A stretch of DNA of 64,000 bases from assembly GCA_020845895.1 (NCBI GenBank), contig JADLEX010000094.1:15897-79896 (forward strand). Reading direction: 5' to 3'. Of this stretch, positions 1,585 to 63,508 are shown one piece after another. The notes beneath the pieces are model-generated. The model saw only the letters and a list, made by a program, of their open reading frames with translations, ran no database searches and had not been told where the DNA came from. The DNA comes from Deltaproteobacteria bacterium. GTDB lineage: Bacteria; Lernaellota; Lernaellaia; JACKCT01. The position numbers were made by a program, and so were the translations under genes. Position 1 is the first letter of the stretch; every line of letters starts with the position of its first letter.

Positions 1585-2046
1585 ATGCGGATCGTGGAAT
1601 ATCTCTCACCGGGAGTGATCGCGCCGAGCCTCGCGGCCGGGGATCGTCGGGACGTCTTGCGCGAACTCGTGGAACTCGCCGGACGACAGGACCCTGACCT
1701 CGATCCGGCCGAGGCGTTTCGCGCGCTTTGGGAACGCGAACGTCTCGGCAGCACGGGTGTCGGCGATGGCGTGGCGATCCCGCACGCCAAGGTGCCGGGC
1801 CTGCGACGTATTCTCGCGGCGTTCGGCCGTTCGGTCGCCGGGATCGAGTTCGAGAGCATCGACGAGCGTCCCGCGCATTTGTTCTTTGCAATTCTGGCCC
1901 CGGACAATTCGGTCGGCGCGCACCTGTCGCTGCTGGCGCGCATCAGCAGGGTTTGTCAGACGCCGGGCGAGACCGAACGACTCATGGCGGCGGTTGACGC
2001 GACGGAGATTCGGCGCATCATCGACCTCGCCGATCAGAACGAGTGA
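1585..2046 (+). CDS. ptsN: PTS IIA-Ntr (nitrogen-regulatory EIIA)
   Basis: RERLGSTGVGDGVAIPHAK motif with the phospho-His. Confidence 0.92.
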   Translation: MRIVEYLSPGVIAPSLAAGDRRDVLRELVELAGRQDPDLDPAEAFRALWERERLGSTGVGDGVAIPHAKVPGLRRILAAFGRSVAGIEFESIDERPAHLFFAILAPDNSVGAHLSLLARISRVCQTPGETERLMAAVDATEIRRIIDLADQNE

Positions 2047-2056
2047 GGGGGACGCC

Positions 2057-3031
2057 GTGGCGTATATCCGCGTCGGCGAAATGCTGGAGCACGAGCAGGA
2101 CAACCTCGAGATGACGCTCATCACCGGGCAGGGCGGACTCGACAACAAGATCTACGTCCCGCACATCCAGAAGCCCGGCCTCGCCATGGCGGGGTACACC
2201 AAACACGTCGTCAACCACCGGATGCAGGTCTTCGGCAAGACCGAGATCAGCTATCTGCACGACCAGAAGCCCGCCGCGGCCCGCAAGATCCTCACCGCGT
2301 TTTTCGAAAAGGGCGTTTGTTGCTGCGTCGTGACGCGGTTTCAGAAAGTCCCCGAAGTCTTCGTGGAGCTGGCCGAATCGTCGAAAACGCCGGTGCTCAG
2401 GACGCGCTTGACCACGCAGGAGTTCATCAATCGCGCGACGCGGTTTCTCGAATCGCGGTTCGCGCGGCGCACCACCATGCACGGCGTGCTCGTCGATGTC
2501 TTCGGCGTCGGCGTGCTCATGCTCGGCAAGAGCGCCATCGGCAAGAGTGAATGCGCCCTCGATCTCATCCTCAAGGGCCATCGCCTCGTCGCCGACGACA
2601 TTGTCGAGCTCGCCCGCGGCGGACCCGATTCCATCAACGGGCGCGGCCCCCAGATCACCAAGTACCTCATGGAGATCCGCGGCCTCGGCATCATCAACAT
2701 CAAGGAGATGTTCGGCATCGGGGCGATTCGCGACAAGAAGAAGGTGCACCTGGTGGTGCGTCTCGTGGAGTGGAACGAAAACACCGAGTACGACCGCGTC
2801 GGCCTCGACGACCAGTTCTACCAGATCCTCGGCGTCGAGCTGCCGATGGTGACGATTCCCGTCCGTCCGGGCCGCAACCTCACCGCCATCGTGGAGGTCG
2901 CCGCGCGCAACCACCTGCTCAAGCTCGAAGGCTATCACGCGGCCAAGGAGTTTCAGGACGGATTGCTCGCGAAAATCGCGGGGCAGGAGGAGAAGGTCTC
3001 CGACGACGACGTGCTCGAGGAAGCGGAATGA
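2057..3031 (+). CDS. hprK: HPr kinase/phosphorylase
   Basis: HGVLVDVFGVGVL, P-loop GKSAIGKS, LVADD, MEIRGLGII, PVRPGRN; GTG start at 2057 inferred (track ORF begins upstream). Confidence 0.95.
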   Translation: MAYIRVGEMLEHEQDNLEMTLITGQGGLDNKIYVPHIQKPGLAMAGYTKHVVNHRMQVFGKTEISYLHDQKPAAARKILTAFFEKGVCCCVVTRFQKVPEVFVELAESSKTPVLRTRLTTQEFINRATRFLESRFARRTTMHGVLVDVFGVGVLMLGKSAIGKSECALDLILKGHRLVADDIVELARGGPDSINGRGPQITKYLMEIRGLGIINIKEMFGIGAIRDKKKVHLVVRLVEWNENTEYDRVGLDDQFYQILGVELPMVTIPVRPGRNLTAIVEVAARNHLLKLEGYHAAKEFQDGLLAKIAGQEEKVSDDDVLEEAE

Positions 3032-4356: not shown

Positions 4357-4636
4357 AGACCCCGGGCTCACGGTCACTCGCGACGTTTTGGTGCGCAACA
4401 AGCAGGGCATTCACCTGCGCCCCGCGTCGAAGATCGTCAAGGCAATGGCCCGCTTCGAGTGCGAGATCTACCTGCACAAGGGCGATCGCGCGGCGAACGC
4501 GAAGAGCATCATGAGCGTGACCACGTTGATCGCGCCGAAAAACACCGTGCTGACGATCCGCGCGGTGGGTCCGGATGCCGAGGAAGCGAGCGCCGCGCTC
4601 GAAACGCTGTTCGTCGAAAAGTTCGGAGAGGAGTGA
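4343..4636 (+). CDS. ptsH: Phosphocarrier protein HPr
   Basis: GIHLRPA (His15) and NAKSIM (Ser46). Confidence 0.93.
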   Translation: MAHDKDPGLTVTRDVLVRNKQGIHLRPASKIVKAMARFECEIYLHKGDRAANAKSIMSVTTLIAPKNTVLTIRAVGPDAEEASAALETLFVEKFGEE

Positions 4637-6411
4637 TGAGCGACTCCGAGCTCGTCTGCCGGAAATTCAAGGGAAATGTCGGCGCGCCTGGCGTGATCGT
4701 CGGCCTCGCGTATTGCATCGACCGCGCGAAGCTGCGCGTCACGATGCGCCTCGTGCTCCCCGAGCTCGTCCTGCTCGAAAAATCCCGTGTCCACGACGCC
4801 ATCGAAAAGAGCCGCGCCCAGCTCGAAGCCGCGCTCGGACGCGATCTGCAGGAGGATCACCGGCTGATCCTCGAGGCGCACCTGGCCTGGCTCGCCGACG
4901 AGTACATGATCCAGGAAGTGCTCCGGCACATCGAAACCGACCGCATCAACGCCGAATGGGCCGTCAAGAAGCTCTTCGACGGGCTCAAGGCCACGCTCGC
5001 GGGCGAATCCGAACGCACGCGCATCGAGCGCACGCAGCTCTTCGACGAGGTCGCCCAACGCCTGATCCGCAACCTGATGGGCGTGCAGGACGAGAGCCTG
5101 GACGGCGTGCCTCCGGGCGTCGTCATCGTCTCGCACAACATCTCGCCCGGCGACATGGCCCATATCGACCGCGAGCGCGTGGTCGGGCTCGCGACCGATC
5201 TGGGCGGCCCGACGAGCCATTCGTCGATTCTCGCGCGCGGGATGGAACTGCCGACGGTGGTCGGCCTCGAGCACATCACGTCGCACGTCAAGACGGGCGA
5301 TGTGCTGATCCTCGACGCGCAGGACGGCCTCGTCTTCGTCCACCCGAGCCTCGAACTCATCGACGAATACCAAGAGAAGATCCGCAAGCGCGCAGCCCGC
5401 ACGGCCGAGCTGCTGGAAATGAAGGACCTGCCGTGCGTCACCGCGGACGGCGTCGCCGTCGGATTGCAGGTCAACATCGACCTTCCCGAGGAAATGCGCC
5501 TCGCGACGAACGTCGGCATCCGCGACATCGGCCTGTTCCGCACGGAATTCATTTTCCTCGCCAAGGGCGGTCCCGCCAGCGAGGACGAGCAGTACGAAAT
5601 CTACTCGCGACTTCTGCGGGAGGTCGGCCGCGACCACTACGCCACCATCCGTACGCTGGACATGGGTTACGACAAGGTGCTGCCCGAGTTGAACCAGCCG
5701 GGCGAATCGAATCCCGCCATGGGACTGCGCGCGATCCGGTTCTGCCTGCAACGCGAGGACATCTTCAAGGATCAGCTCCGCGCCATGCTGCGCGCGTCGG
5801 TGCACGGCAACCTTCGAATCATGGTCCCGATGATCTCGTGCCTGTCCGAACTGCGGCGCGCGAAGGGGATTCTGGAGGAAGTGCGTCAGGAGCTCGAACT
5901 CGAAGGGCGCGAGTTTTCCGATGACGTACGCCTGGGGATCATGATCGAGGTGCCCAGCGCCGTCATCATCGCGGACATCCTCGCGGCCGAGGTCGATTTC
6001 TTCAGCATCGGAACGAACGACTTGATCCAATACACCATGGCCATCGACCGCGAGAACGAAAACGTCGCTTATCTCTACAGCCCCATCCACCAGGCGATTC
6101 TGCGAATGATCAAGCAGACGGTGGACGCGGCGCGCGAGGCCCGGATCGAGGTCTCGATGTGCGGCGAAATGGCCGGCGACCTGCAGCTCACCATGCTGCT
6201 CATCGGCCTCGGAGTGGACAACCTTTCCATGAGCCCCGCGGCGACCCTGAAGGTCAAGGACCTCGTCCGGCGCATCGACATGGGTGAGGCGCGCGCACTG
6301 GCCGGGCGTGTGCTCGGCATGAAGACGCGACGCGAGATCATCGCCCTCGTCAAGGACACGATGCACACCCGGTTCCCCGTCGAATTTCGCGACCATTCCT
6401 GGACGATCTAG
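4636..6411 (+). CDS. ptsI: PTS enzyme I (PEP-protein phosphotransferase)
   Basis: GGPTSHSSILAR phospho-His, GLFRTEF, RTLDMG.DK, NPAMGLRAIR, GIMIEVP, SIGTNDLIQY; ATG at 4636 overlaps the ptsH stop. Confidence 0.96.
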   Translation: MSDSELVCRKFKGNVGAPGVIVGLAYCIDRAKLRVTMRLVLPELVLLEKSRVHDAIEKSRAQLEAALGRDLQEDHRLILEAHLAWLADEYMIQEVLRHIETDRINAEWAVKKLFDGLKATLAGESERTRIERTQLFDEVAQRLIRNLMGVQDESLDGVPPGVVIVSHNISPGDMAHIDRERVVGLATDLGGPTSHSSILARGMELPTVVGLEHITSHVKTGDVLILDAQDGLVFVHPSLELIDEYQEKIRKRAARTAELLEMKDLPCVTADGVAVGLQVNIDLPEEMRLATNVGIRDIGLFRTEFIFLAKGGPASEDEQYEIYSRLLREVGRDHYATIRTLDMGYDKVLPELNQPGESNPAMGLRAIRFCLQREDIFKDQLRAMLRASVHGNLRIMVPMISCLSELRRAKGILEEVRQELELEGREFSDDVRLGIMIEVPSAVIIADILAAEVDFFSIGTNDLIQYTMAIDRENENVAYLYSPIHQAILRMIKQTVDAAREARIEVSMCGEMAGDLQLTMLLIGLGVDNLSMSPAATLKVKDLVRRIDMGEARALAGRVLGMKTRREIIALVKDTMHTRFPVEFRDHSWTI

Positions 6412-6635: not shown

Positions 6636-6698
6636 ATGCGTTGGGATAACTCCCCGAGACCCGGTTGGCAAGGCCAAAATTCACCGGGAGCGAGTCGA

Positions 6699-7718
6699 AT
6701 GACGATCCAGTTGGCGGGGGCGGTCGAGCAGTTTCAGACGGCATGTCGATCGGAGCTCGGGCTCTCCGAAAAAACGGCGAGGGCGTACTCCTACGATCTC
6801 GCTCAGTTTGTCGATTTCACCCATGTCGCGAGCCTCTCCGATGTCGGCGTCGAGCGCATCCGCGCCTACGTCGAGGACCTCGAAAGTCGCCAGGATCTCA
6901 AACCGACGACCGTGCGTCGAAAGGTCATGACCCTCAAGGCGTTCTTCGGCTATTTCCGCGAACGGGGCGCGATCCCCGGCAATCCCGCGGATGAACTCGG
7001 CTACAAGCAGCAAATCCAGAAGACGCAGCCGCGCATTCTGAATTCGGGCGACCTCGTTCGCCTTCTGCAGTGCGTGGACGGCGAGGTCGAGCGTTATTCG
7101 GAGATGCTGCGCCCCGGTTGCGGTCGGCGTATTCGCCTGTTTCACGACAACGCGATTCGCGACCGGGCCATTATCGAGCTGCTGTTCTCCACGGCGATGC
7201 GCATCGGCGAACTCACCGAGCTCGACATCGAAGACGTGGACCTCGACCTTGGAACAATCCATGTCGAGGGAAAAGGCAATCGCGACCGGCATCTGGTGGT
7301 CGCGGGCGAAAAGACCCTGGCGGCCCTTCGCGAATACTGGAAGATCCGCCGACTGGCGAACGGCGGCTGCCCGGCGTTCTTCCTCAACCGCTGTCCCGGA
7401 CGGCTCTCGATCTTCGCCGTCGAGAATATGTTCGAACGAATCCGCAAGGCCGCGGGCATCCGCCGCCGGGTGACCCCCCACGCGCTCCGACATACGATGG
7501 CCACGATGCTGCTCAACAACGGCATGGCCATGGAACGAATCCGCGACATCCTCGGTCACAGCTCGCTCGTGACGACGCAGGTTTACGACGAGGTCGCTCC
7601 GCGTCGGCAAAAGAAGGTGCTGGATTTTCTCAACGAGGAACGACGTCTCGACGTCGGCGTCCTCGGTGAGGACGAAGCCGACGAACCGGTGTTGCCGGTG
7701 ATCGCGACGCGCGGATGA
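6699..7718 (+). CDS. XerC/XerD-like tyrosine recombinase
   Basis: Catalytic set R (TAMRIGEL), K (GKGNRDR), HxxR (TPHALRHTMAT), H (LGHSSL), Y (TTQVY); start at MTIQL after GGGAG. Confidence 0.9.
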   Translation: MTIQLAGAVEQFQTACRSELGLSEKTARAYSYDLAQFVDFTHVASLSDVGVERIRAYVEDLESRQDLKPTTVRRKVMTLKAFFGYFRERGAIPGNPADELGYKQQIQKTQPRILNSGDLVRLLQCVDGEVERYSEMLRPGCGRRIRLFHDNAIRDRAIIELLFSTAMRIGELTELDIEDVDLDLGTIHVEGKGNRDRHLVVAGEKTLAALREYWKIRRLANGGCPAFFLNRCPGRLSIFAVENMFERIRKAAGIRRRVTPHALRHTMATMLLNNGMAMERIRDILGHSSLVTTQVYDEVAPRRQKKVLDFLNEERRLDVGVLGEDEADEPVLPVIATRG

Positions 7719-16371: not shown

Positions 16372-17631
16372 ATGAGCGAACTCATCAACAACCGCGAACA
16401 CCGCATCGAAACGATGAAGACCGTCATCCGCCACCTGCACGCGGGAAAGCCCGCCGATGAAGTGCGCGGCATGCTGCGCGACCTGGTGCGCGAGACCGAC
16501 GCGACCGAGATCGCCGCGATGGAGCAATCGCTGATCGGCGACGGCATGCAGATCGAGGAAGTGAAGTCGATGTGCGACCTGCACTCCGCCGTGCTGCGCG
16601 AGGTGATGGTCGAGCGTCAGGAGGCCGTGCTCGTCCCCGGCCACCCGGTGCACACGTTCAGGGCGGAAAACGACGCCTTGCGCGGCGTGATCGGGCGGAT
16701 GCGCGAGATTCAGCAGCGCATCGTGGACAGCCCCGACGACGCCCCCGTGGATGCTCAACTCATCGCGTCGTGGCGTGGCGCGGCGAACGAACTGGCTGAC
16801 GTCGAGAAGCATTACGCACGCAAGGAAAACCTGCTGTTTTCGTTCCTCGAGGGCCACGGCATCACCGGTCCCTCGAAGGTGATGTGGGCGAAAGACGACG
16901 ATGTGCGCGCGCTGGTGAAGAACCTCCACGAAGCCCTGCGTGCGGGCGAAGCCACCCTCGCCGAATGGAAGCTCGTCGTCTGGGGCGTCGCCGAACCGAC
17001 GCTCGCGGCGATGGAGGAGATGTTCTTCAAGGAAGAGAACATCCTGTTCCCGCTCTCGATGTCCACGCTGACCGACGACGAGTGGGGGCAGGTGTACGCG
17101 CAGTCGCCGGAATACGGCTGGTGCCTCGTCGCACCCGAAAGCGGATACACGCCGCCCGAACCGAAGCACCCCGATCAGGTGCATCAGGTGCCCGCGGGCA
17201 AGTCGATCACGTTCCCCTCGGGGCATCTCACGTTCGAGCAGTTGCTCGGCCTCTTCATTGCGCTGCCCGTCGATCTGACCTTCGTCGATGCCGACGACCG
17301 TGTGCGTTTCTTCTCGGAAGGACCCGACCGCGTCTTCGCGCGCAGCCGTGCGATCATCGGGCGGCTCGTGCAGCACTGCCATCCGCCCAAGAGCGTCGAC
17401 ATGGTCGAGCGCATCCTGCACGACTTCAAATCCGGGACGCAGAGCGTTGCCGAGTTTTGGATCGAAATGCACGGGAAATTCGTCCACATTCGCTATTTCG
17501 CGGTGCGCGACGAGAAGGGGGCCTATCAGGGCACGCTCGAAGTCACGCAGGACCTCACGCGGCTTCGCGCTCTGACGGGAGAGCGCCGGCTGCTGCAATA
17601 CGACAGCGCTCCCGCCGGGAGTCCGTCATGA
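16372..17631 (+). CDS. DUF438 / hemerythrin / PAS-domain protein
   Basis: MCDLHSAV, GHPVHTF.AEN, HYARKENLLF, KEENILFP, C-terminal PAS with RLVQHCHPPKS. Confidence 0.85.
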   Translation: MSELINNREHRIETMKTVIRHLHAGKPADEVRGMLRDLVRETDATEIAAMEQSLIGDGMQIEEVKSMCDLHSAVLREVMVERQEAVLVPGHPVHTFRAENDALRGVIGRMREIQQRIVDSPDDAPVDAQLIASWRGAANELADVEKHYARKENLLFSFLEGHGITGPSKVMWAKDDDVRALVKNLHEALRAGEATLAEWKLVVWGVAEPTLAAMEEMFFKEENILFPLSMSTLTDDEWGQVYAQSPEYGWCLVAPESGYTPPEPKHPDQVHQVPAGKSITFPSGHLTFEQLLGLFIALPVDLTFVDADDRVRFFSEGPDRVFARSRAIIGRLVQHCHPPKSVDMVERILHDFKSGTQSVAEFWIEMHGKFVHIRYFAVRDEKGAYQGTLEVTQDLTRLRALTGERRLLQYDSAPAGSPS

Positions 17632-34899: not shown

Positions 34900-35242
34900 G
34901 GCGGAAGAGTCGATCAAAATTGCTCTCCACATCGGCGAGAACGCGAAGCGCCGCTGCATCCCGCACGATCACGACGATGTCGTAACCCGGAGCAAGGAGG
35001 TGGCGGTGCGTGCGATAATACTCGCGAATCAGGCGCTTGGCACGATTGCGCCGAACCGCCTTGCCCGATTGCCGGCTGAGCGTCAGACCGACTCGGGGCC
35101 ATGCCCGGCGGCCGCGGTCCACGAGCACCGTGAAATCCGGCGTGCGAAACCGTTTGCCGCGACGCCCGACGCGCAGAAAATCGCGCCGGTCGAGCAGACG
35201 CGAGGCCTTGGGAAACCGCTGCCCCGTCGGCTTCGCATCCAT
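34808..35242 (-). CDS. rnpA: Ribonuclease P protein component
   Basis: RL..R.DF, RVGLTLSR..GKAVRRNRAKRLIRE, DIVVI. Confidence 0.92.
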   Translation of the reverse strand: MDAKPTGQRFPKASRLLDRRDFLRVGRRGKRFRTPDFTVLVDRGRRAWPRVGLTLSRQSGKAVRRNRAKRLIREYYRTHRHLLAPGYDIVVIVRDAAALRVLADVESNFDRLFRHAPFLLRTPRGGSGDAPTRPPNGSGGPASV

Positions 35243-35252
35243 CGCCGCGTCA

Positions 35253-35411
35253 TCAGCCCCGCGCCTTGGTCTTGAACACCGGGGCGAGAACCTTGCGGCC
35301 CTTGGCCCGTCGCGACTTGAGCACGGCGCGGCCCCAACGCGTGGCCATCCGATGACGGAAGCCGTGCGTGCGAACCCGCTTCAGGTTGCGCGGTTGATAA
35401 GTCTGTTTCAT
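35253..35411 (-). CDS. rpmH: 50S ribosomal protein L34 (not in the ORF track, 52 aa)
   Basis: Hand translation [52 protein letters not shown]; RBS GAGGTG. Confidence 0.97.
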
Positions 35412-35526
35412 GGCGTCACCTCAAAAAAACCCGGCCCCGATCCTCGGGATATTCTCTCGTATCCCGGCGGAATTCGTGGGGCAAGTGTTGAAGATCTCGT
35501 AAGAATCCGCGTCGCAAAGGCCGCCT

Positions 35527-35555
35527 TGTGTAGCCAAAACGCCCCCGCTTGTCAA
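35527..35555 (-). promoter_or_regulatory. Sigma-70 promoter of the rpmH operon
   Basis: Minus strand TTGACA-N17-TACACA. Confidence 0.5.
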
Positions 35556-35705
35556 CCGCGACTCCCCGTTTGCGATCGGGGATCGAATATGGGACTTGCC
35601 TGCGCCGACGAGGCCGGGCGCCGGGCCAAGTTGTCACGCACCAACCCGTCCGATATAAGGGCAATGTTCGGCCGGGGGGCGGACGTCTTCGAAAGGACCA
35701 TCGCC

Positions 35706-37061
35706 ATGTACGCATCGCGGATCCATCGCGCAGCGCTCGTCGTGTTATTGGGGCTCGCACTCCTTTTCGCTCTTGTTCCGGTCGCTCGGGCGGATTCGGC
35801 CGGCGACGCTCTTTACGCGAAAGTTCAGAAGTCGCTGGGCGCGGTGAATACGGCGACCTATCAGCTCACGCTGCAAAACCGCGTCGGGTCGAAGATGCGA
35901 CCCAAGGAAGTCATCCAGTGCAAGACGACGCGCGAGGGCAAGCTGTATCTGAAGTGGACGGGCGACGCGAACAAGAATCGCGAGCTGATCTACAAGCCCG
36001 GCTGGAACAACGACAAGCTGTGGGTGAAGGAAGGCGGTGCGCTCGACTTCGCGGCGGTCGCGGTGGCTTTCGACGACCCGATCGTGAAATCCGATTACGT
36101 GCGTTCGCTGGACGTGCTCATTTTCGATCGCCTCGCGAAGGTGATCGCCGAATGGAAGTCGGCGGGGGTCGCGACCGTCGAGCCGGACGGCCAGACGCTT
36201 CGCATCACGGCGTCGGGGCAGGGCGTGTCGCTCATCACGCCGGACGCCGCGGGGCTCCCAACGAAAATCGTCGTCAAGGACGCCAAAGACCAGATCGTCG
36301 AGGAGTACGTCATTTCGAGCATGAATGCCTCGGCGCAGCTCGGCGACGCGGACTTCGACGTGAAGAACGCGGCCTACGGATTTCCGGGGTTTTCGTCGGA
36401 CGGAATCCATATCGATGCCGAGCGCATGAAGGCGACGCTCGACAAAAAGTACGGGGCGGCGAACCACTACACATGCCGCATGGAGAAGAAGGAGCGCATC
36501 GCCGGCAAGCTGCAGGAAAAGCAGACCATGGAGGTCAAGTTCCGCAAACCCGGCGACATCTACATGAAGTGGGCCAAGGGACCGCACGAGGGGCGGCAGA
36601 TGCTCTACCGCGTGGGCAAGGACGATAAGATCACGGTGAAAGAGGCCGGGATTCTGGGCATCGCCACCGTGAAAATCGACCCCAACGGCTCGCTGGTCAA
36701 AGCCGATACCAATCACCCCCTGACCGAACTCGACATGGGTTTCACCATCGGGATGATCTACCAGCAACTCTCCAAGGGCCAGAAAAACGGCGACATCAAG
36801 CTGAAATTCAAGGGCGTCGAGAACATCGGGGGCAAGCCGGCCTACGTCGTCGAATCCTGGTTCCAAAACGCCGAGACGCAGGGCTATTACGCTCCGCACT
36901 CCATCAACTGGCATGACAAGGCAACCGGCCTGCCGGTGAAGACGGCCTCCTTCGAGGCCAACGGCGATCTGCGCGAGGAGTTTCTCTGGACGAACATCAA
37001 GTTCAACCCCGGCCTCACCGACGCGGATTGGGACCCGGCGAACCCCGAATACGGGTTCTAA
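35706..37061 (+). CDS. Exported protein with two tandem DUF1571/LolA-like domains
   Basis: Signal peptide; two repeats (YLKWTGDANKNRELIY / YMKWAKGPHEGRQMLY; LGDADFDVKNAAYGF / LTDADWDPANPEYGF). Confidence 0.75.
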   Translation: MYASRIHRAALVVLLGLALLFALVPVARADSAGDALYAKVQKSLGAVNTATYQLTLQNRVGSKMRPKEVIQCKTTREGKLYLKWTGDANKNRELIYKPGWNNDKLWVKEGGALDFAAVAVAFDDPIVKSDYVRSLDVLIFDRLAKVIAEWKSAGVATVEPDGQTLRITASGQGVSLITPDAAGLPTKIVVKDAKDQIVEEYVISSMNASAQLGDADFDVKNAAYGFPGFSSDGIHIDAERMKATLDKKYGAANHYTCRMEKKERIAGKLQEKQTMEVKFRKPGDIYMKWAKGPHEGRQMLYRVGKDDKITVKEAGILGIATVKIDPNGSLVKADTNHPLTELDMGFTIGMIYQQLSKGQKNGDIKLKFKGVENIGGKPAYVVESWFQNAETQGYYAPHSINWHDKATGLPVKTASFEANGDLREEFLWTNIKFNPGLTDADWDPANPEYGF

Positions 37062-54225: not shown

Positions 54226-56220
54226 ATGGACCGATATCGACTGATCGACACCTATACGCCGAGGGGCGACCAGCCACAAGCCATCGCGGAGCTGGTTGAG
54301 GGCGTCGGGCGCGGCGAGAAGCACCAGGTACTGTTGGGCGTGACGGGCAGCGGGAAAACGCTCACGGTCGCGAACGTCATCGCGCAAAGCGGCCGGCCCG
54401 CGCTGGTACTGGCGCACAACAAGACCCTCGCCGCCCAACTCTTCTCCGAGTTTCGGGAGCTCTTTCCCGACAACGCGGTGGAGTATTTCGTCAGCTATTA
54501 CGACTATTACCAGCCCGAGGCGTATATCCCACGCTCGGATACCTACATCGAAAAAGACAGCTCGGTGAACGAGCGCATCGACCGGCTGCGTCACTCCGCC
54601 ACACGATCGCTGCTGACGCGCCGCGACGTCATCATCGTGGCGTCGGTCTCGTGCATCTACGGCCTCGGCAGCCCGCACGAATACAACAAGATGCTCGTGG
54701 TCGTGAACAAGGGCGACCGCATGGACCGCGACCAGCTCATGCGCCGTCTAATCGAGATGCAGTACACGCGCAACGACATCGACTTTTTTCGCGGCACGTT
54801 TCGCGCGCGGGGCGATGTGCTCGAGATCTTTCCCGCCTACGAAGACGAAAAGGCGATCCGCATCGAGTTTTTCGACGAGGACGTGGAACGCATCGCCGAG
54901 ATCGACCCGCTGCGCGGCAAGGTGATCCGCGACCTTCCCCGCATCGGGATATTTCCAAACAGCCACTACGTCGCCGACCGCCCGACCATCGAGCGAGCCA
55001 TCGCGGATATCCGCGCGGAGCTCAAGGAACGCTGCGAGCAGCTCCTGTCGCTGGGCAAGCTGCTGGAGGAACAACGCCTGCGGGAGAAGACGCTCTACGA
55101 CATCGAAATGCTCGCGCAGCTCGGCTACTGCTCGGGCGTCGAAAACTACAGCCGCCACCTCGATGGCCGCGAGGCCGGCTCGCCGCCGTGGACGCTCCTC
55201 GATTACTTCCCGTCCGATTTTCTGACGTTCATCGACGAGTCGCATCAGACCGTTCCGCAGCTCAACGCCATGTACAACGGCGATCGCTCGCGCAAGACCG
55301 TGCTGGTGGAATACGGCTTCCGCCTGCCGTCGGCGCTCGACAATCGTCCGCTGCGTTTCGAGGAAATCCAGCAGCGATTCGGTCAGATCGTGTATGTCTC
55401 GGCGACGCCCGCCGCGTGGGAGCTCGAGAAGGCGGGCGGAGTGGTGGTGGAGCAGATCATCCGTCCGACGGGGCTGATGGACCCTCGCGTCGAGGTCCGG
55501 CCCGCGGGAAATCAGGTGGACGACCTGCTCGACGAGATCAAAGCCCGCATCGACAAGAACGAGCGCGTGCTCGTGACGACGTTGACCAAGCGGATGGCCG
55601 AGGATCTGACGACCTACTATCAGGATCTCGGGCTGCCCGTCCGCTACCTGCACAGGGAGATCGACACGCTCGAACGTGTCGCGATTCTGCGCGATCTGCG
55701 CCTCGGCGAATTCGCGGTGCTCGTCGGCATCAACCTGCTGCGCGAGGGCCTCGACTTGCCCGAGGTCTCGCTCGTCGCGATCCTCGACGCCGACAAGGAA
55801 GGGTTTCTGCGCTCCACGACGAGCCTCCTGCAGACTATCGGCCGTGCCGCGCGCAACGTGAACGGCACGGTGATCCTCTATGCGGATCGCATGACGGCCA
55901 GCATGAGCACGGCGCTTGACGAGACCAATCGTCGCCGCGAGACGCAGCGCCGGTACAACACGGACAACGGCATCACGCCCGAGTCGATCGTGAAGGGCGT
56001 CTCGAACGCGCTGCTGGCGATCTACGACAAGGACTACGTGACCGTGCCGACGCTCAGGCCCGAGGACGACGACCAGATCGTGCCTGCGCACATTCCGATG
56101 ATGGTCGAATCGCTGCGCCGCCAGATGAAAGCGGCGGCGAAGAGCCTCGACTTTGAGCGCGCGGCCGAGTTGCGCGATCAGATCAAGCGGCTGGAGGAGC
56201 GCGAGATCGTCGGGCTCTAA
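54226..56220 (+). CDS. uvrB: Excinuclease ABC subunit B
   Basis: [44 protein letters not shown]-terminal [12 protein letters not shown]. Confidence 0.98.
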
Positions 56221-56250
56221 ATCTCACTTCCGGTCCTATCACTCCGCCTA

Positions 56251-56285
56251 TTGCCTTCTCGGCCACATATAGATATATTGCTATA
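56251..56285 (+). promoter_or_regulatory. Sigma-70 promoter with an overlapping ArsR-type operator
   Basis: TTGCCT(56251)-N17-TATATT(56274); inverted repeat TATAG-N8-CTATA (56268-85) spans the -10. Confidence 0.65.
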
Positions 56286-56297
56286 CAAGAGGTGGTC

Positions 56298-56633
56298 ATG
56301 GCGACCGACATGCTTCCCCAGTTCGACTTCGCGCCCTTTACGAACCGCCAGTGCGACGGCATCGCCGAGCTGCTCAAGGCGGTGGGGCACCCGGTGCGTC
56401 TTCGTGTGATCGACACGCTCGCGCGCGGTGAGATCTGCGTGGGCGATCTGGCGCTGGCGATCGGCGAGAAACAGGCGATCGTGTCGCAGCAGCTCAAGAT
56501 CCTGCGCATGGTGGGGCTCGTGAAGACCGAGCGGCGGGCTGGCAAGGCGTTCTACCGGCTCAACAACCAACACCTCTACGACCTGCTTTCGTGCATGCAC
56601 CGATGCGCGTGTTCGCAGTTTCCGGAGGAGTGA
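56298..56633 (+). CDS. ArsR/SmtB-family transcriptional repressor, Cys-rich
   Basis: KAVGHPVRL, EICVGDL, VSQQLKILR..GLV..ER.G...YRL, C-terminal SCMHRCAC. Confidence 0.9.
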   Translation: MATDMLPQFDFAPFTNRQCDGIAELLKAVGHPVRLRVIDTLARGEICVGDLALAIGEKQAIVSQQLKILRMVGLVKTERRAGKAFYRLNNQHLYDLLSCMHRCACSQFPEE

Positions 56634-56640
56634 GAAACCG

Positions 56641-56826
56641 ATGTCCGTGAACGACCTGTGGATTGTGGGCTTCCTCGTCTTCTGGATTCTGCTCCAGACG
56701 GTGATTCTGCCCAAACTGGGCGTGCCCACCTGAGCGAGCAACGCCTGTCGTCTGGATGACGGCAAAAAGCCCAAAGCGCGCGAATCCGAAAACGTCGAAA
56801 ACGCCCCCGGCCCGGAGGGAGGGTGA
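56641..56826 (+). CDS. Putative membrane-anchored small selenoprotein (61 aa, Sec at codon 31)
   Basis: MSVNDLWIVGFLVFWILLQTVILPKLGVPT-UGA(56731)-ASNACRLDDGKKPKARESENVENAPGPEGG-stop; hairpin 12 nt after the UGA; readthrough stop lies 3 nt before the next ATG. Confidence 0.7.
56746..56764 (+). other. Putative bacterial SECIS element 1
   Basis: UGUCGUC-[UGGAU]-GACGGCA (7 bp, one G:U) starting 12 nt after the UGA; G in the apical loop. Confidence 0.62.
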
Positions 56827-56829
56827 GTC

Positions 56830-57033
56830 ATGCCGATTTACGTCTATCGTTGCCGCGTCTGCGGCGAACAGTTCGATAAGCTCGTTTCGATCGGGGCCGC
56901 GAGCCAGCCCCAGACCTGCCCGCAATGCGGCGCGTTCGACGCGCAGAAGCAGATCGCCGCGCCCAGCGCGGTGCCGTCCGCGAAAGGCGGCGGATGCTCC
57001 TCGCCCGCGGGCGGCGGATTCACCTGAGGTTGA
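56830..57033 (+). CDS. FmdB-family zinc-ribbon protein, probably a selenoprotein ending ...GGGFT-U-G (otherwise stops at 57027)
   Basis: [12 protein letters not shown]...CPQCG zinc ribbon; [22 protein letters not shown]; hairpin 12 nt after the first TGA. Confidence 0.75.
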
Positions 57034-57039
57034 GGGGTG

Positions 57040-57056
57040 GGCCGCCGTGTGCGGCC
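57040..57056 (+). other. Putative bacterial SECIS element 2 (alternatively a terminator-like hairpin between convergent genes)
   Basis: GGCCGC-[CGUGU]-GCGGCC, 12 nt after UGA 57025-27; no U-tract on either strand. Confidence 0.5.
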
Positions 57057-57060
57057 GGAT

Positions 57061-58530
57061 TCACTTCTTCGGGTATTCGTCGACGATGATGCTGACGAGG
57101 TTGCGCGCCGAGACCGCCTCGCCTTCCATGCCGAGCCCGGGCAGAACCGCCTTGCCTGTGTAAAAGACGGACTTGTGCGGCGTGCGGTTGTGGAGCAGGG
57201 CGACGCCGAGTTTGTCGTCGTCGATGTTCTGCGACCATGCCTCGGCCCGCTCGATGCGATACAGCTCGTAACTTTCTTTCTTCGCGACGAAATCCGTGAA
57301 GTCGTCGAGAAACGGCATCAGTTCGCGCAGTGCGGCGTGAATGCGTTCGCAGAGCATGTCCGCTGTGCGCTCTTCCATCACACCGTTTTGCGGGCGGATC
57401 TTGATGCGGGCCGCGAGCAGGCGCTTGCCGATCGGCGCGAGGGCCTCGTCGTCCGGCGCGGAGAGGCTGATCATGATGAGGTTGTCGTCGATCAGTTCGT
57501 GCCGGGGGTCCTGAACGAGAATGACGTTCGGCCCCATCCCAACCGGCACCACATTCGCGTCGATGCCGACGTAAAGCACGAAATCGTGCCGGCCGGGGGG
57601 AGGCAGCTCAAGCTTTTCCTTGAAGTCCGACTTCAGGTGCTTGGGCGACCACGCCTTGAAGAACTCTTCCGGGTTGTCGCAGACGGCAATCGCCTTCGTC
57701 TTGATCGGTTCCTTCTGGTCGGCGAACTTGATCTCGGTGTACTTGCCGAACTCGATGTGCTCGATGGCCGGCGTGCGGTGGCACACGCCCCGATACGCCG
57801 AGATGCGCTCGCGGTAGAGCGTTTCGAGAACCTTGATGCCGCCTTCGACCTGGAAGATGCCGTTGTTGGTGAGTCCGAGCAGGTTCGCGGCGTAAGCCAG
57901 GTTCGGAGCGTCGGGATATACCGGCGATAGATACTGCACCTGACCGTCTACAAACGTCCGCGCCTCGGGCGACAGTTCGTAGCGGTCCAGGAACTCGCCG
58001 TAATCCGTGCGGATCGCCTCTTTGTAGAGGTCCGAGACGTTCGCGAGCGCTTTCTTCGCGGCGCGTCCCTCGCCCCAGGTGGACGGTGGATAGACCACGT
58101 CGTTGACGAAGAACCCGCGGATGACCTGCGCGTAGCGGTCGACGTCGCTGATGAGCGAGACGACCTTGCCCGACTCCTTGGGAAATTCAAGCGAGACGGT
58201 GCGGAACAGCTCGTCGCGCGACTGCGGGAGATCGACCCGGCGCGCGGGCGTGACGATCTGAAAACCGGGCTCCGCCATCAGAAAGCGTTTCTTGTCGAGG
58301 AACGGAATGCCGAGCTCGGTGAAGATTTCGGAAAAAATCTGGCCCTTGCCGAAACCGAAGAACATGCCGGGAAAACGGCGAAGTCGATACTCACCGATTC
58401 GTTTCACATGCGCCTGCGCCTCGACGTCCGCGATCAGCACGTTGTACCCGCGCTTGACGAGCAACGCGCCCGCGATGAGCCCGGACAAGTCCGAGCCCAA
58501 AATCGTGACGTCGAAGAGCATCCCGATCAT
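57061..58530 (-). CDS. FAD/NAD(P)-binding oxidoreductase (phytoene-dehydrogenase-like fold)
   Basis: FDVTILGSDLSGLIAGALLVKRGYNVLIAD Rossmann start, FQVEGG, C-terminal PGLGMEG; TGATG overlap with purM. Confidence 0.7.
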   Translation of the reverse strand: MIGMLFDVTILGSDLSGLIAGALLVKRGYNVLIADVEAQAHVKRIGEYRLRRFPGMFFGFGKGQIFSEIFTELGIPFLDKKRFLMAEPGFQIVTPARRVDLPQSRDELFRTVSLEFPKESGKVVSLISDVDRYAQVIRGFFVNDVVYPPSTWGEGRAAKKALANVSDLYKEAIRTDYGEFLDRYELSPEARTFVDGQVQYLSPVYPDAPNLAYAANLLGLTNNGIFQVEGGIKVLETLYRERISAYRGVCHRTPAIEHIEFGKYTEIKFADQKEPIKTKAIAVCDNPEEFFKAWSPKHLKSDFKEKLELPPPGRHDFVLYVGIDANVVPVGMGPNVILVQDPRHELIDDNLIMISLSAPDDEALAPIGKRLLAARIKIRPQNGVMEERTADMLCERIHAALRELMPFLDDFTDFVAKKESYELYRIERAEAWSQNIDDDKLGVALLHNRTPHKSVFYTGKAVLPGLGMEGEAVSARNLVSIIVDEYPKK

Positions 58531-62160: not shown

Positions 62161-62202
62161 ACGCTCCGTCGTCCGTCGAGGTTTTCGCCGAAACGGCGGC
62201 AT

Positions 62203-62276
<74 letters not shown>

Positions 62277-62284
62277 TCCCGAAG

Positions 62285-62509: not shown

Positions 62510-63508
62510 ATGAGCTTCGGATTTGACGCTAGGCGAAAGCAAGCGGTTTTCCGCCAAACGCTTAGCACGGCGGCCCGGACACCGACCGACGACAAAATGA
62601 GGCGCAACAGACATCTGCTTGCCCACGGGTGCGAAGAAGAGAATCTCATGCCCTGCTTGCGTGGTCCGGGTGGCGCAACCGACTTCTTCGGCAAGCGCAG
62701 CATCGAATGGTGGAATGACCCTGAGCGGACCGGCGACAGAGCGGGTGCGGCTCCGACGCGCAACCTAGCGAGCTCGCAGGTCGCCTGCGTGAACTTCCTC
62801 CTACCGCTCGCCTCCATTCCCGATGCACTCTTGGAAGTGCTGCGTGCCATCGACTCCGACGTCATCGAAGTCGTGCCCATCGTCGACTGGGACGGGAACT
62901 CGTCACCCGTCGAGTTCGAATGGATCGGATGGAGAAAGCCGCTGGAAGGCGGCCAGTTTATTCGTGGCAAGTACAAAACCAGCGCCGATGCAGTGATCGT
63001 CGCGCGCACTCCGAGTGGACAGCGTGCCTACGTGTTCGAGTGGAAGTATAGCGAGAAGTACAAGGGAGAGCCGCTCCATGGCAACGACGACACGCGACGC
63101 GGTTGGTACGCGGCCCGCTTCGCCGCGCCGACCTCCGCGTTCATCGGCGCCGCACCCCTCGACGACTTCCTCTTCGAGCCGTGCTACCAGATCATGCGCC
63201 TGCTGCTGCTCGCCGACCGCATGATGGAAGAAGGCGTCACGCGGGACCTGCGCGTCGACGAGGCGCGGGTCGTCGTGGCCTGCCCCGCCGCCAACGACGA
63301 CTATCGGCGCATCGTGAAGAAGACGCAGCTCGCGCGGCGCTTCCCACATCTGGACATGGTGGAGGAAGTCGTCCGGGCGACACTCAAGGAGCCGGGGCGG
63401 TTCTCCATCGTCGCGCAGGAGAACCTCGTCGCCACGCTACGGGCGTCTACGCTCGCGCCGAGTCTTGCGTTCTGGCTGGACTACCATCGGGAGCGCTACG
63501 GCTGGTGA
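62510..63508 (+). CDS. PD-(D/E)xK restriction-endonuclease-like protein (PGN_0703-like)
   Basis: NLASSQVACVNF, TSAD...YVFEWKYSE (D...ExK), YQIMR.LLLA; family name from memory. Confidence 0.7.
   Translation: MSFGFDARRKQAVFRQTLSTAARTPTDDKMRRNRHLLAHGCEEENLMPCLRGPGGATDFFGKRSIEWWNDPERTGDRAGAAPTRNLASSQVACVNFLLPLASIPDALLEVLRAIDSDVIEVVPIVDWDGNSSPVEFEWIGWRKPLEGGQFIRGKYKTSADAVIVARTPSGQRAYVFEWKYSEKYKGEPLHGNDDTRRGWYAARFAAPTSAFIGAAPLDDFLFEPCYQIMRLLLLADRMMEEGVTRDLRVDEARVVVACPAANDDYRRIVKKTQLARRFPHLDMVEEVVRATLKEPGRFSIVAQENLVATLRASTLAPSLAFWLDYHRERYGW

Follow-up and report, generated by a model that had tools for sequence, protein, structure and literature searches.

An ArsR-associated operon of two small predicted selenoproteins that appear to belong to undescribed families

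Several described systems stand close to an operon in which a gene for an ArsR-family repressor precedes genes for small selenocysteine (Sec, U)-containing proteins. Haft and Tolstoy reportedly described, in 2025, a 'three selenoprotein operon' (Tso) system with an ArsR/SmtB regulator named TsoR. A Sec residue next to the C-terminus is found in mammalian thioredoxin reductase, which ends in -G-C-U-G-COOH. In small membrane peptides with Cys motifs, such as the Cys-rich membrane protein associated with FeoB or MerT and MerE, which have Cys pairs in the cytoplasm, a transmembrane (TM) helix is followed by a Cys-type motif on the cytoplasmic side and by a charged tail. The Sec form of MerT has been catalogued (2026 selenoprotein table). 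FmdB-family selenoproteins of the CxxU or UxxU type (TIGR02605) were reported from the metagenome of Global Ocean Sampling (GOS; Zhang and Gladyshev, 2008), and the inventory in a 2026 review, which covers 119 families and subfamilies of prokaryotic selenoproteins, has FmdB solely with a Sec located in the ribbon (CxxU/UxxU). In this study, we analyzed a stretch of 64,000 nucleotides (hereafter the window) from contig JADLEX010000094.1 of a Deltaproteobacteria bacterium placed in Lernaellota, in which an arsR gene is followed by two small genes, one for a putative membrane selenoprotein (tmU) and one for a putative FmdB zinc-ribbon selenoprotein (fmdB-U). These genes appear to form an ArsR-associated selenoprotein operon built from undescribed selenoprotein families.

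A preliminary description of this DNA had proposed two small, tightly packed genes, each with an in-frame UGA and a hairpin 12 nt behind it, and had read them as one membrane and one soluble Sec protein. All of these elements were present (Table 1). Because of conserved reading frames beyond the UGA codons, synonymous changes and an in-frame indel, covarying hairpins and, for the membrane gene, Cys homologs, both genes are very probably decoded with Sec, which supports the reading of one membrane and one soluble Sec protein.

The open reading frame (ORF) of the membrane gene reads MSVNDLWIVGFLVFWILLQTVILPKLGVPT-UGA-ASNACRLDDGKKPKARESENVENAPGPEGG-stop, and its frame stays open for 30 further codons after the TGA. 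Residues 6-24 of the product are strongly hydrophobic and form a single predicted N-terminal TM helix (Kyte-Doolittle 19-residue mean of 2.25), which is followed by T-U(56731-56733)-ASNA-C(56746-56748) and a charged tail. The 12 distinct Sec-type genes that we collected share the pattern Q-x-x-[IV]-L-P-[KR]-x-G-[VI]-x-T-UGA-x4-C, in which Q, L, P, G, T, the position of the UGA and the Cys five residues after U were invariant, with a variable, charged tail behind them. The frame after the UGA was open for 21-36 codons in all 12. A comparison of this region between the window and its closest counterpart (locus L001) revealed four synonymous and three replacement changes (one of them involving two bases in a single codon), as well as an in-frame insertion of one codon.

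A metagenome scan driven by a peptide pattern ending in Cys gave 20 loci with Cys homologs (14 distinct sequences), whose LP[KR][LF]G[IV][PS]T-C-x4-C aligned to T-U-x4-C; three of them read T-C-C-C instead. On these alignments, the predicted Sec form and the Cys form of the membrane peptide are a textbook Cys/Sec pair. The Cys forms had no consistently placed hairpin and showed weaker folding at similar GC content (mean of -8.5 kcal/mol vs -12.9 kcal/mol in the Sec forms). One Cys-type gene (L092:2558-2650) has a 6-bp hairpin (CUCCCG/CGGGAG) soon after the Cys motif, which may be a relic of Sec-to-Cys replacement. Neighbors of the Cys-type peptides code for thioredoxin (L089, L091, L093, L095 and L097), a CcdA-thioredoxin fusion (L097), DUF302 (L095 and L105), ArsR together with a small ferredoxin (L099 and L100), and extracytoplasmic function (ECF) sigma/anti-sigma pairs. 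A Sec-type peptide in a metagenome-assembled genome (MAG) of Candidatus Eisenbacteria (L081:4020-4230) lies between TlpA-like thioredoxin and L,D-transpeptidase-like genes, approximately 1.3 kb from an ArsR match. Neither the Sec nor the Cys form matched any family in a Pfam and NCBIfam scan, and a word-indexed protein search in which the membrane protein, with C in place of U, was the query gave no match in a database from which products of this short or truncated kind are evidently missing.

The second small gene codes for a clear FmdB-family protein (TIGR02605, 59.8 bits against a cut-off of 31.3; PF09723, 58.2 against 34.4). Its ribbon is formed by C8-xx-C11 and C30-xx-C33 (CxxC-x18-CxxC), all of them Cys, and is followed by a Gly/Ser-rich tail containing Cys56. 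The gene ends in GGGFT-TGA(57025)-GGT-TGA(57031), i.e. F-T-U-G-stop, so that the predicted Sec is residue 66 of 67. The 10 ArsR-linked FmdB genes have tails of the form [G/P/R/K]-F-[TS]-UGA, then Gly/Ala, GGH or ASC, and then a stop (an extension of 1-3 codons), with synonymous variation after the UGA: GGT or GGC, GCG or GCA, and GCG-AGT-TGC (L037) vs GCA-AGC-TGC (L039). A conserved Cys lies 8-13 residues before the Sec, except that L037 and L039 have U-x-x-C (U-A-S-C) after it instead.

The Sec tail also occurs outside the three-gene operon, as all four FmdB genes sampled there (L109-L112) combine the UGA with a short extension and carry a hairpin at the corresponding position. These include RFT-UGA-GCC-UGA next to FTCD in Vicinamibacteria (L109:2001-2192), HFT-UGA-GGA-UAA next to genes for a NifS-like desulfurase and NifU (L111:2001-2195), and GGG-UGA-RIK-UAA next to a gene for a thioredoxin-like protein (L112:141-338), which lacks F[TS] before the UGA; in L110, uvrB, arsR and FmdB-U occur without a membrane ORF. 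A further FmdB gene, known by its place without its DNA, was listed as the same type between CMD/AhpD-like and CsoR-type repressor genes. The codon at the predicted Sec position, which annotation takes as the stop, was TGA in 14 of the 14 FmdB genes of this type (10 ArsR-linked and four others), whereas 99 unrelated FmdB-like genes from viral contigs (IMG/VR) had 53 TGA, 32 TAA and 14 TAG stops, and any qualifying hairpin was found in 3 of the 59 TGA-terminated ones among these controls. The true stop past the Sec was itself UGA in 12 of the 14 genes examined.

Public annotation appears to end such proteins early. An exhaustive HMMER search of cluster representatives identified 1172 FmdB relatives at E <= 0.001. 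Among the best 150 of these matches, 146 were short proteins, whose annotated terminus was exactly F[ST] in 58 cases, F[GRK] in 21 and Gly-rich in 26. Since 105 of the 146 nearest short representatives thus have one of these three kinds of terminus, the Sec tail of FmdB has probably been truncated on a large scale in public annotation. The IMG/VR scan for FmdB genes returned only phage-type FmdB-like proteins, none with a Sec tail; with FmdB as query, the word-indexed protein search returned nothing beyond the protein of the window itself and one close cluster, and a plasmid tblastn search for FmdB G-F-T termini gave N-terminal ribbon matches only. The two top matches to the FmdB ribbon were giant proteins (P0044, 1407 residues with 19 zinc-ribbon stretches; P0045, 761 residues with eight).

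We then evaluated the hairpins with the model for bacterial selenocysteine insertion sequence (bSECIS) elements (PMC13188914), i.e. a loop of 3-9 nt, a stem of 4-16 bp, a G in the first two loop positions, a distance of 16-37 nt between UGA and loop, and a minimum free energy of at most -7.5 kcal/mol. Hairpin 1, in the membrane gene, has a 7-bp stem, the loop UGGAU and an energy of -9.0 kcal/mol; its stem lies 12 nt and its apical loop 19 nt after the UGA. The corresponding values for hairpin 2, behind the FmdB gene, are 6 bp, CGUGU, -10.9 kcal/mol, 12 nt and 18 nt, and both hairpins agree with the model. All 12 loci with a Sec-type membrane gene have a hairpin that starts at or just past the conserved Cys codon and has GG or GU in its loop, and their stems differ (UGUCGUC/GACGGCA, GCCGCCC/GGGCGGC, UGCGAUC/GAUCGCA, AUCUCC/GGAGAU and GGCCCGC/GCGGGCC). 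When the sequences were aligned without gaps from the UGA, 81% of cells were paired, four of the seven pairs changed on both sides, and none of 500 shuffles reached the score. Inspection showed the FmdB-U hairpin in all 14 genes, and formal rules accepted it in 12 of them; the background, for this hairpin and for that of the membrane gene, was 5-13%. It starts approximately 12-15 nt after the UGA irrespective of the length of the extension, its apical loop being 16-19 nt off. Its loop (CGUG[CU] or CGGGC) is conserved and its stem covaries: 86.9% of cells were paired, with changes on both sides in 21 cells and five of the six pairs, and again none of 500 shuffles reached this result. Slid controls showed 31-64% pairing, and they were far lower for the membrane gene too. 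An alternative role of hairpin 2 as an intrinsic terminator was rejected, as it has no T-run, a fixed distance to the UGA and a conserved loop.

Some observations weigh against Sec decoding. First, the folding z-scores of the segments were -0.6 to -1.5, and the single-sequence energies were not significant. Second, none of selA, selB, selD and tRNA-Sec was found among 20 large ORFs that were scanned and the tRNAs of the window, and an Rfam scan of the window gave tRNA-Asp only. Third, there was no clear case of a Cys homolog aligned to the FmdB Sec, the only loosely comparable Cys-rich C-termini being of the kind of CSMCG. Hairpins after UGA are also not rare in this DNA, whose GC content is 63.8%: relaxed rules were satisfied by 12.8% of the window's UGA triplets. 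The strict bSECIS model found a hairpin after only 7 of 138 long TGA-ended ORFs, and at a spacing of 16-20 in only one of these seven. In favor of Sec decoding, the UGA that ends arsR in the same operon serves as an ordinary stop. One sequence alone is only suggestive, and it is the comparative evidence that lifts the Sec reading above chance.

The order arsR, membrane-U, FmdB-U was observed in the contigs to which ArsR homologs were traced (L001, L002, L004 and L005) and in loci added by a scan of species-representative genomes (L010, L011, L014, L037 and L039), all of these relatives being MAGs. The identity of their ArsR to that of the window was 95% in L001, 91% in L002, 69% in L004 and 67% in L005, and 53-54% in two further loci, L006 and L007. 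Altogether, arsR followed by the membrane-U gene recurs in approximately ten distinct lineages, mostly with FmdB-U downstream. The upstream flanks differ, with uvrB in the window and L001, TauE/SafE and gltX in L002, and unrelated genes elsewhere. The gene-neighborhood search that the preliminary description had called for thus recovered arsR and the membrane-U gene, in most cases with FmdB-U, in loci with differing flanks whose ArsR is 53-69% identical. Its placing of fmdB as the third gene was borne out in most loci but not in all, because the third gene of L006 and L007 instead codes for a DUF6132-type protein with two TM helices, whose in-frame UGA lies in C-x-x-G-G-(x)-U. The Sec-tailed FmdB is not specific to the operon. 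These DUF6132-U genes (L006:3492-3716, C-Y-S-G-G-U; L007:3462-3656, C-Q-A-G-G-T-U) have a hairpin after the UGA; with U read as C, they scored 24.1 (L006) and 17.7 (L007) against PF19628 (DUF6132, gathering score of 23.2), and the window's own operon has no such gene. Since the third gene is either FmdB-U or DUF6132-U, the stable core in most loci is, as far as these predicted genes go, the ArsR subfamily plus the membrane peptide, and the second Sec protein is exchangeable.

The layout of the locus and the evidence for each feature are given in Table 1.

Table 1. Features of the arsR locus, in positions of the 64,000-nucleotide window
Feature	Position	Strand	Details or basis
Promoter, sigma-70-like, -35 TTGCCT / -10 TATATT	56251-56256, 56274-56279	+	17-nt spacer; promoter prediction
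Operator-like inverted repeat TATAG-ATATATTG-CTATA, 18 bp	56268-56285	.	overlaps -10 hexamer
arsR, 111-residue ArsR/SmtB-family repressor, ATG 56298, TGA 56631-56633	56298-56633	+	hidden Markov model (HMM) matches
Membrane selenoprotein gene (predicted), 61 codons, in-frame TGA 56731-56733, stop TGA 56824-56826	56641-56826	+	read-through translation
SECIS-like hairpin 1, UGUCGUC-UGGAU-GACGGCA	56746-56764	+	bSECIS criteria, covariation
FmdB zinc-ribbon selenoprotein gene (predicted), 67 codons, Sec TGA 57025-57027, stop TGA 57031-57033	56830-57033	+	HMM, conserved tail
SECIS-like hairpin 2, GGCCGC-CGUGU-GCGGCC, 3' untranslated region beyond stop	57040-57056	+	bSECIS criteria, covariation

The gap between arsR and the membrane gene is 7 nt, and that between the stop of the membrane gene and the start of fmdB is 3 nt, with the Shine-Dalgarno sequence of FmdB (GGAGGGAGGG) lying within the final codons of the membrane ORF, downstream of its UGA. 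No intrinsic terminator was predicted in 56100-57300. The short gaps, the single predicted promoter and the lack of a predicted terminator suggest one transcription unit. It is rather probable that arsR, tmU and fmdB-U form one tricistronic, autoregulated operon that responds via a BigR-like repressor and provides a selenol/thiol relay. The unit is flanked by uvrB (54226-56220, +) and by a convergent gene for a CrtD-like FAD/NAD oxidoreductase (57061-58530, -). The latter, a 489-residue protein, was rejected as a member of the module, as only the two closest relatives share it (98% identity) and other lineages have no counterpart. Between L002 and the window, the downstream gene is 98% identical and the upstream genes differ, which places a rearrangement breakpoint right at the arsR promoter.

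The predicted promoter and the repeat overlapping it, both proposed in the preliminary description, were found in place. TTGCCT-N17-TATATT was the only promoter-like site in 56100-57300, where 0.2 would be expected from shuffles, and TATAG-N8-CTATA had a single match in 64 kb, with none in any of 100 shuffles. In 13 related loci, the DNA before arsR shows a -35 of the TTGAC type and a -10 of the form TATAxT at the same position as in the window, and a core ATAG-N-TATAT-NN-CTAT, which contains the window's inverted repeat, recurs over the -10 before these orthologous arsR genes. The same core precedes the arsR of L044, a neighbor of a DsrE2-like gene. From this conservation, ArsR quite likely represses its own operon at the repeat over the -10.

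The regulator is clearly of the ArsR family, with 79.7 bits for NF033788 (cut-off of 55) and 40.3 for PF01022 (cut-off of 22; E = 2.8e-10). Its nearest solved structure is that of BigR (3PQJ, 63.8 bits, E = 1.4e-16), followed by SmtB, NmtR and SqrR, with CzrA also among the PDB relatives. Both Cys motifs named in the preliminary description, EICV and the C-terminal C99-M-H-R-C103-A-C105, are present, but their conservation differs. Across 31 ArsR homologs, C99 and C103 were at least 90% conserved, whereas the Cys of EICV (EQSV in L004, ERNV in L005) and the N-terminal C19 were not, and the EICV Cys was rejected as a sensor residue on this ground. C105 is restricted to the closer ArsR clade, the distant operon-bearing relatives retaining CxxxC only. 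Thus, the conserved sensor candidates in the alignment are C99-x3-C103, predicted to lie within the C-terminal helix. C105 aligns with the alpha5 sensing Cys108 of BigR. Two results weigh against a BigR-like sensor: the position of the alpha2 sensing Cys is Asp in the window ArsR, and the BigR equivalog model NF040642 gave 64.6 bits against a cut-off of 155. With the TsoR model at 35.8 bits against 115, both equivalog cut-offs were missed, and membership in BigR or TsoR was rejected.

Elsewhere, members of the same ArsR subfamily with the same CxxxC precede PhsA/PsrA-like Tat-signal molybdoenzymes of the thiosulfate/polysulfide type, which come closest to PhsA at 458-461 bits (a score short of the equivalog cut-off), and DsrE2-like sulfur carriers, and in L002 a TauE/SafE exporter gene (1955-2770, -) is divergent from arsR and is followed by gltX. 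Because the neighbors of related arsR genes are sulfur enzymes and carriers, the signal could be an inorganic sulfur species, which we put forward as a possibility at a tentative level. Of the redox, sulfur and metalloid responses raised in the preliminary description, these neighbors favor sulfur. In two further loci (L045:689-3148 and L050), an arsR gene of the same subfamily is followed by genes for octaheme cytochromes of the tetrathionate-reductase family (TIGR04315, 588 bits), a family with GenBank-annotated Sec forms according to the 2026 review.

These observations can be arranged into a mechanism of five steps. First, an ArsR-family dimer would bind the 18-bp inverted repeat over the -10 and repress its own promoter, as its conservation suggests. 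Second, the thiols of C99-x3-C103, joined by C105 in the window's clade, would read the signal, and their modification or ligation would release ArsR; the likeliest inducers would be reactive sulfur species (persulfide, polysulfide, thiosulfate or tetrathionate-derived sulfane sulfur). Third, the single UGA of each downstream gene is very probably read as Sec, directed by a SECIS hairpin with its loop 18-19 nt downstream. Fourth, the products would be a single-pass membrane peptide whose selenol/thiol dyad, U-x4-C, lies on the cytoplasmic side, and a soluble zinc-ribbon protein with a flexible tail, in which a Cys lies 8-13 residues before the penultimate Sec (F-T-U-G-COOH). Many Arg and Lys residues follow the helix, which predicts an N-out/C-in topology with the dyad facing the cytoplasm. 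Fifth, both proteins might act at the membrane on sulfane sulfur or a chemically similar soft electrophile, which they would bind, reduce or pass on, and proteins of the thioredoxin type would recycle them. This last step is the weakest of the proposal: neighborhood association is the whole basis for a selenol/thiol relay function, which counts against it and leaves this function doubtful.

The same architecture with the same Sec decoding might instead handle a soft metal or metalloid, such as As(III), Hg(II), Cd(II), or selenium and tellurium species. C99, C103 and C105 would then form an S3 site, and the U-x4-C peptide and the Sec tail would serve as metal ligands or chaperones, like the MerT Cys pair that hands Hg to MerA. 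The three C-terminal Cys of the close clade (CMHRCAC) would suit an S3 site for As(III), Cd or Hg equally well, which is a point against the sulfur reading, and the protein belongs to the metalloregulator family ArsR/SmtB. Other FmdB-U genes adjoin a CsoR-type metal repressor and a CMD/AhpD-like protein, DUF302 adjoins Cys-type peptides, and the 2026 review ties C-terminal Sec and Sec transport proteins mostly to metal or metalloid handling. However, C105 has been lost in the distant operon-bearing relatives, no arsenic, mercury or cadmium resistance gene was found in approximately 20 operon loci, and related arsR genes adjoin genes for carriers and oxidoreductases of sulfur compounds. We therefore regard a metal or metalloid role as unlikely, if still worth weighing beside an inorganic sulfur signal.

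The operon might also be chiefly a gauge of selenium availability, in which completion of the two short ORFs and translational coupling of fmdB-U to the membrane ORF are set by the supply of Sec-tRNA, and the proteins are by-products or regulators of selenium metabolism. Two Sec codons within approximately 130 codons of a regulator-led operon would fit this, as would a Shine-Dalgarno sequence for FmdB that is reached only after Sec insertion and the NifS-like cysteine (or selenocysteine) desulfurase/lyase and NifU genes beside one FmdB-U gene. On the other hand, the conservation of the U-x4-C dyad and the Cys-only homologs in thioredoxin contexts point to a chemical role, the presence of arsR and fmdB-U without a membrane ORF in L110 indicates that coupling is not required, and no selenium-metabolism gene was found in any operon locus, which makes a gauge very improbable. 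Finally, the idea that the UGAs are ordinary stops, giving a 30-residue membrane peptide and a 65-residue FmdB with hairpins for mRNA stability, termination or other regulation, matches the shortened products that gene callers annotate, the weak z-scores, the frequency of post-UGA hairpins in GC-rich DNA (12.8% under relaxed rules) and the lack of visible Sec machinery in the window, but it is hardly credible in view of the open frames with an invariant Cys at +5 in 12 of 12 lineages, the Cys codons at the UGA position in 14 distinct homologs, the in-frame indel and synonymous changes downstream of the UGAs, the hairpin distance that stays fixed whatever the extension length, the covarying stems without a T-tract or predicted terminator, and the exclusive TGA of tailed FmdB genes, which unrelated FmdB-like genes do not share.

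Elsewhere in the window, a PD-(D/E)XK / REase-ARP nuclease gene (62510-63505) comes after the single tRNA gene (Asp, 62202-62279), which could mark the edge of an integrated element, and a tyrosine recombinase gene lies at 6636-7715. Other genes, at 1757-3028, 4459-6408, 16372-17628 and 35037-37058, code for a DUF1571 protein, HPr kinase and PTS enzyme I, and a DUF438-hemerythrin-PAS protein. They offer a hint at the physiology and taxonomy of the bacterium, the DUF1571 family being associated with Planctomycetota.

Taken together, our results may be read, tentatively and somewhat speculatively, as two unrecognized but widespread selenoprotein classes, the C-terminal-Sec FmdB proteins and the LPKLGVxT-[U/C]-x4-C peptides, which together with a CxxxC sensor form a selenium-dependent membrane relay for sulfane sulfur or soft electrophiles; the Sec form of DUF6132 may join these classes. 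If confirmed, two or three families would be added to the prokaryotic selenoproteome, and the annotated FmdB Sec proteins of many phyla would turn out to lack their last two to four residues. FmdB/Zn_ribbon_8, which has so far been labelled only speculatively as 'regulatory', would also gain its first mechanistic handle from a Sec tail that is redox-active or carries a ligand, and the ArsR subfamily would be defined by CxxxC and the ATAG-N-TATAT-NN-CTAT operator and tied to inorganic sulfur metabolism.

Comparison with the described systems places the locus as follows. Like MerT, MerE and the FeoB-associated protein, the membrane peptide has one N-terminal TM helix directly before a Cys-type motif and a charged tail. 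However, there is no sequence or HMM similarity between them, the signature here is LPKLGV-x-T-[U/C]-x4-C, and the neighbors are thioredoxin, CcdA, DUF302 and ArsR rather than mer or feo genes. With BigR and SqrR, the regulator shares the winged-helix core, C105 at the position of Cys108, an AT-rich operator overlapping the promoter and a link to sulfur genes including TauE, whereas its conserved pair is the intrahelical C99-x3-C103 and the genes under its predicted control code for tiny Sec proteins, not a persulfide dioxygenase operon.

The FmdB protein belongs to the same zinc-ribbon family (TIGR02605 / PF09723) as the GOS proteins, which are also predicted selenoproteins. In those, Sec replaces a zinc-ligand Cys inside the ribbon CxxC, whereas the predicted Sec here is penultimate in the tail and its SECIS element lies in the 3' untranslated region. 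In this respect it resembles the C-terminal-Sec families (UXX-star, KCU-star and SaoC), in which Sec is 1-3 residues from the C-terminus of a flexible tail, the SECIS element is partly or wholly past the stop and the extension is easily missed. It differs from them in that the tail sits on a zinc ribbon and its partner Cys, instead of adjoining the Sec, precedes it by 8-13 residues, the U-A-S-C of L037 and L039 being the exception; the star- and SaoC-type models NF041114, NF041211, NF033934 and NF040734 gave no match to the window FmdB. More generally, no NCBIfam selenoprotein model matched either of the two Sec proteins, and the 2026 inventory holds no membrane peptide of this type, no C-terminal-Sec FmdB and no Sec form of DUF6132 among its 119 families.

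The closest parallel in organization is the Tso system, for which our comparison was based on NCBIfam models (NF045707, NF045694/5 and NF045708) and the 2026 review. The models for Tso A, B, C, X and Y gave no match to either small protein at E <= 1. In both systems, an ArsR-family regulator gene accompanies an operon that codes for several small, biochemically uncharacterized selenoproteins, and TsoA has a short U...C motif (LULAxC). The window differs in having two Sec proteins of different folds, not three, and the motif T-U-x4-C after a TM helix. Thus, the preliminary claim of an undescribed system stands for its components, as both Sec types fall outside the 119 listed families, whereas an ArsR-regulated operon of several selenoproteins has a precedent in Tso/TsoR.

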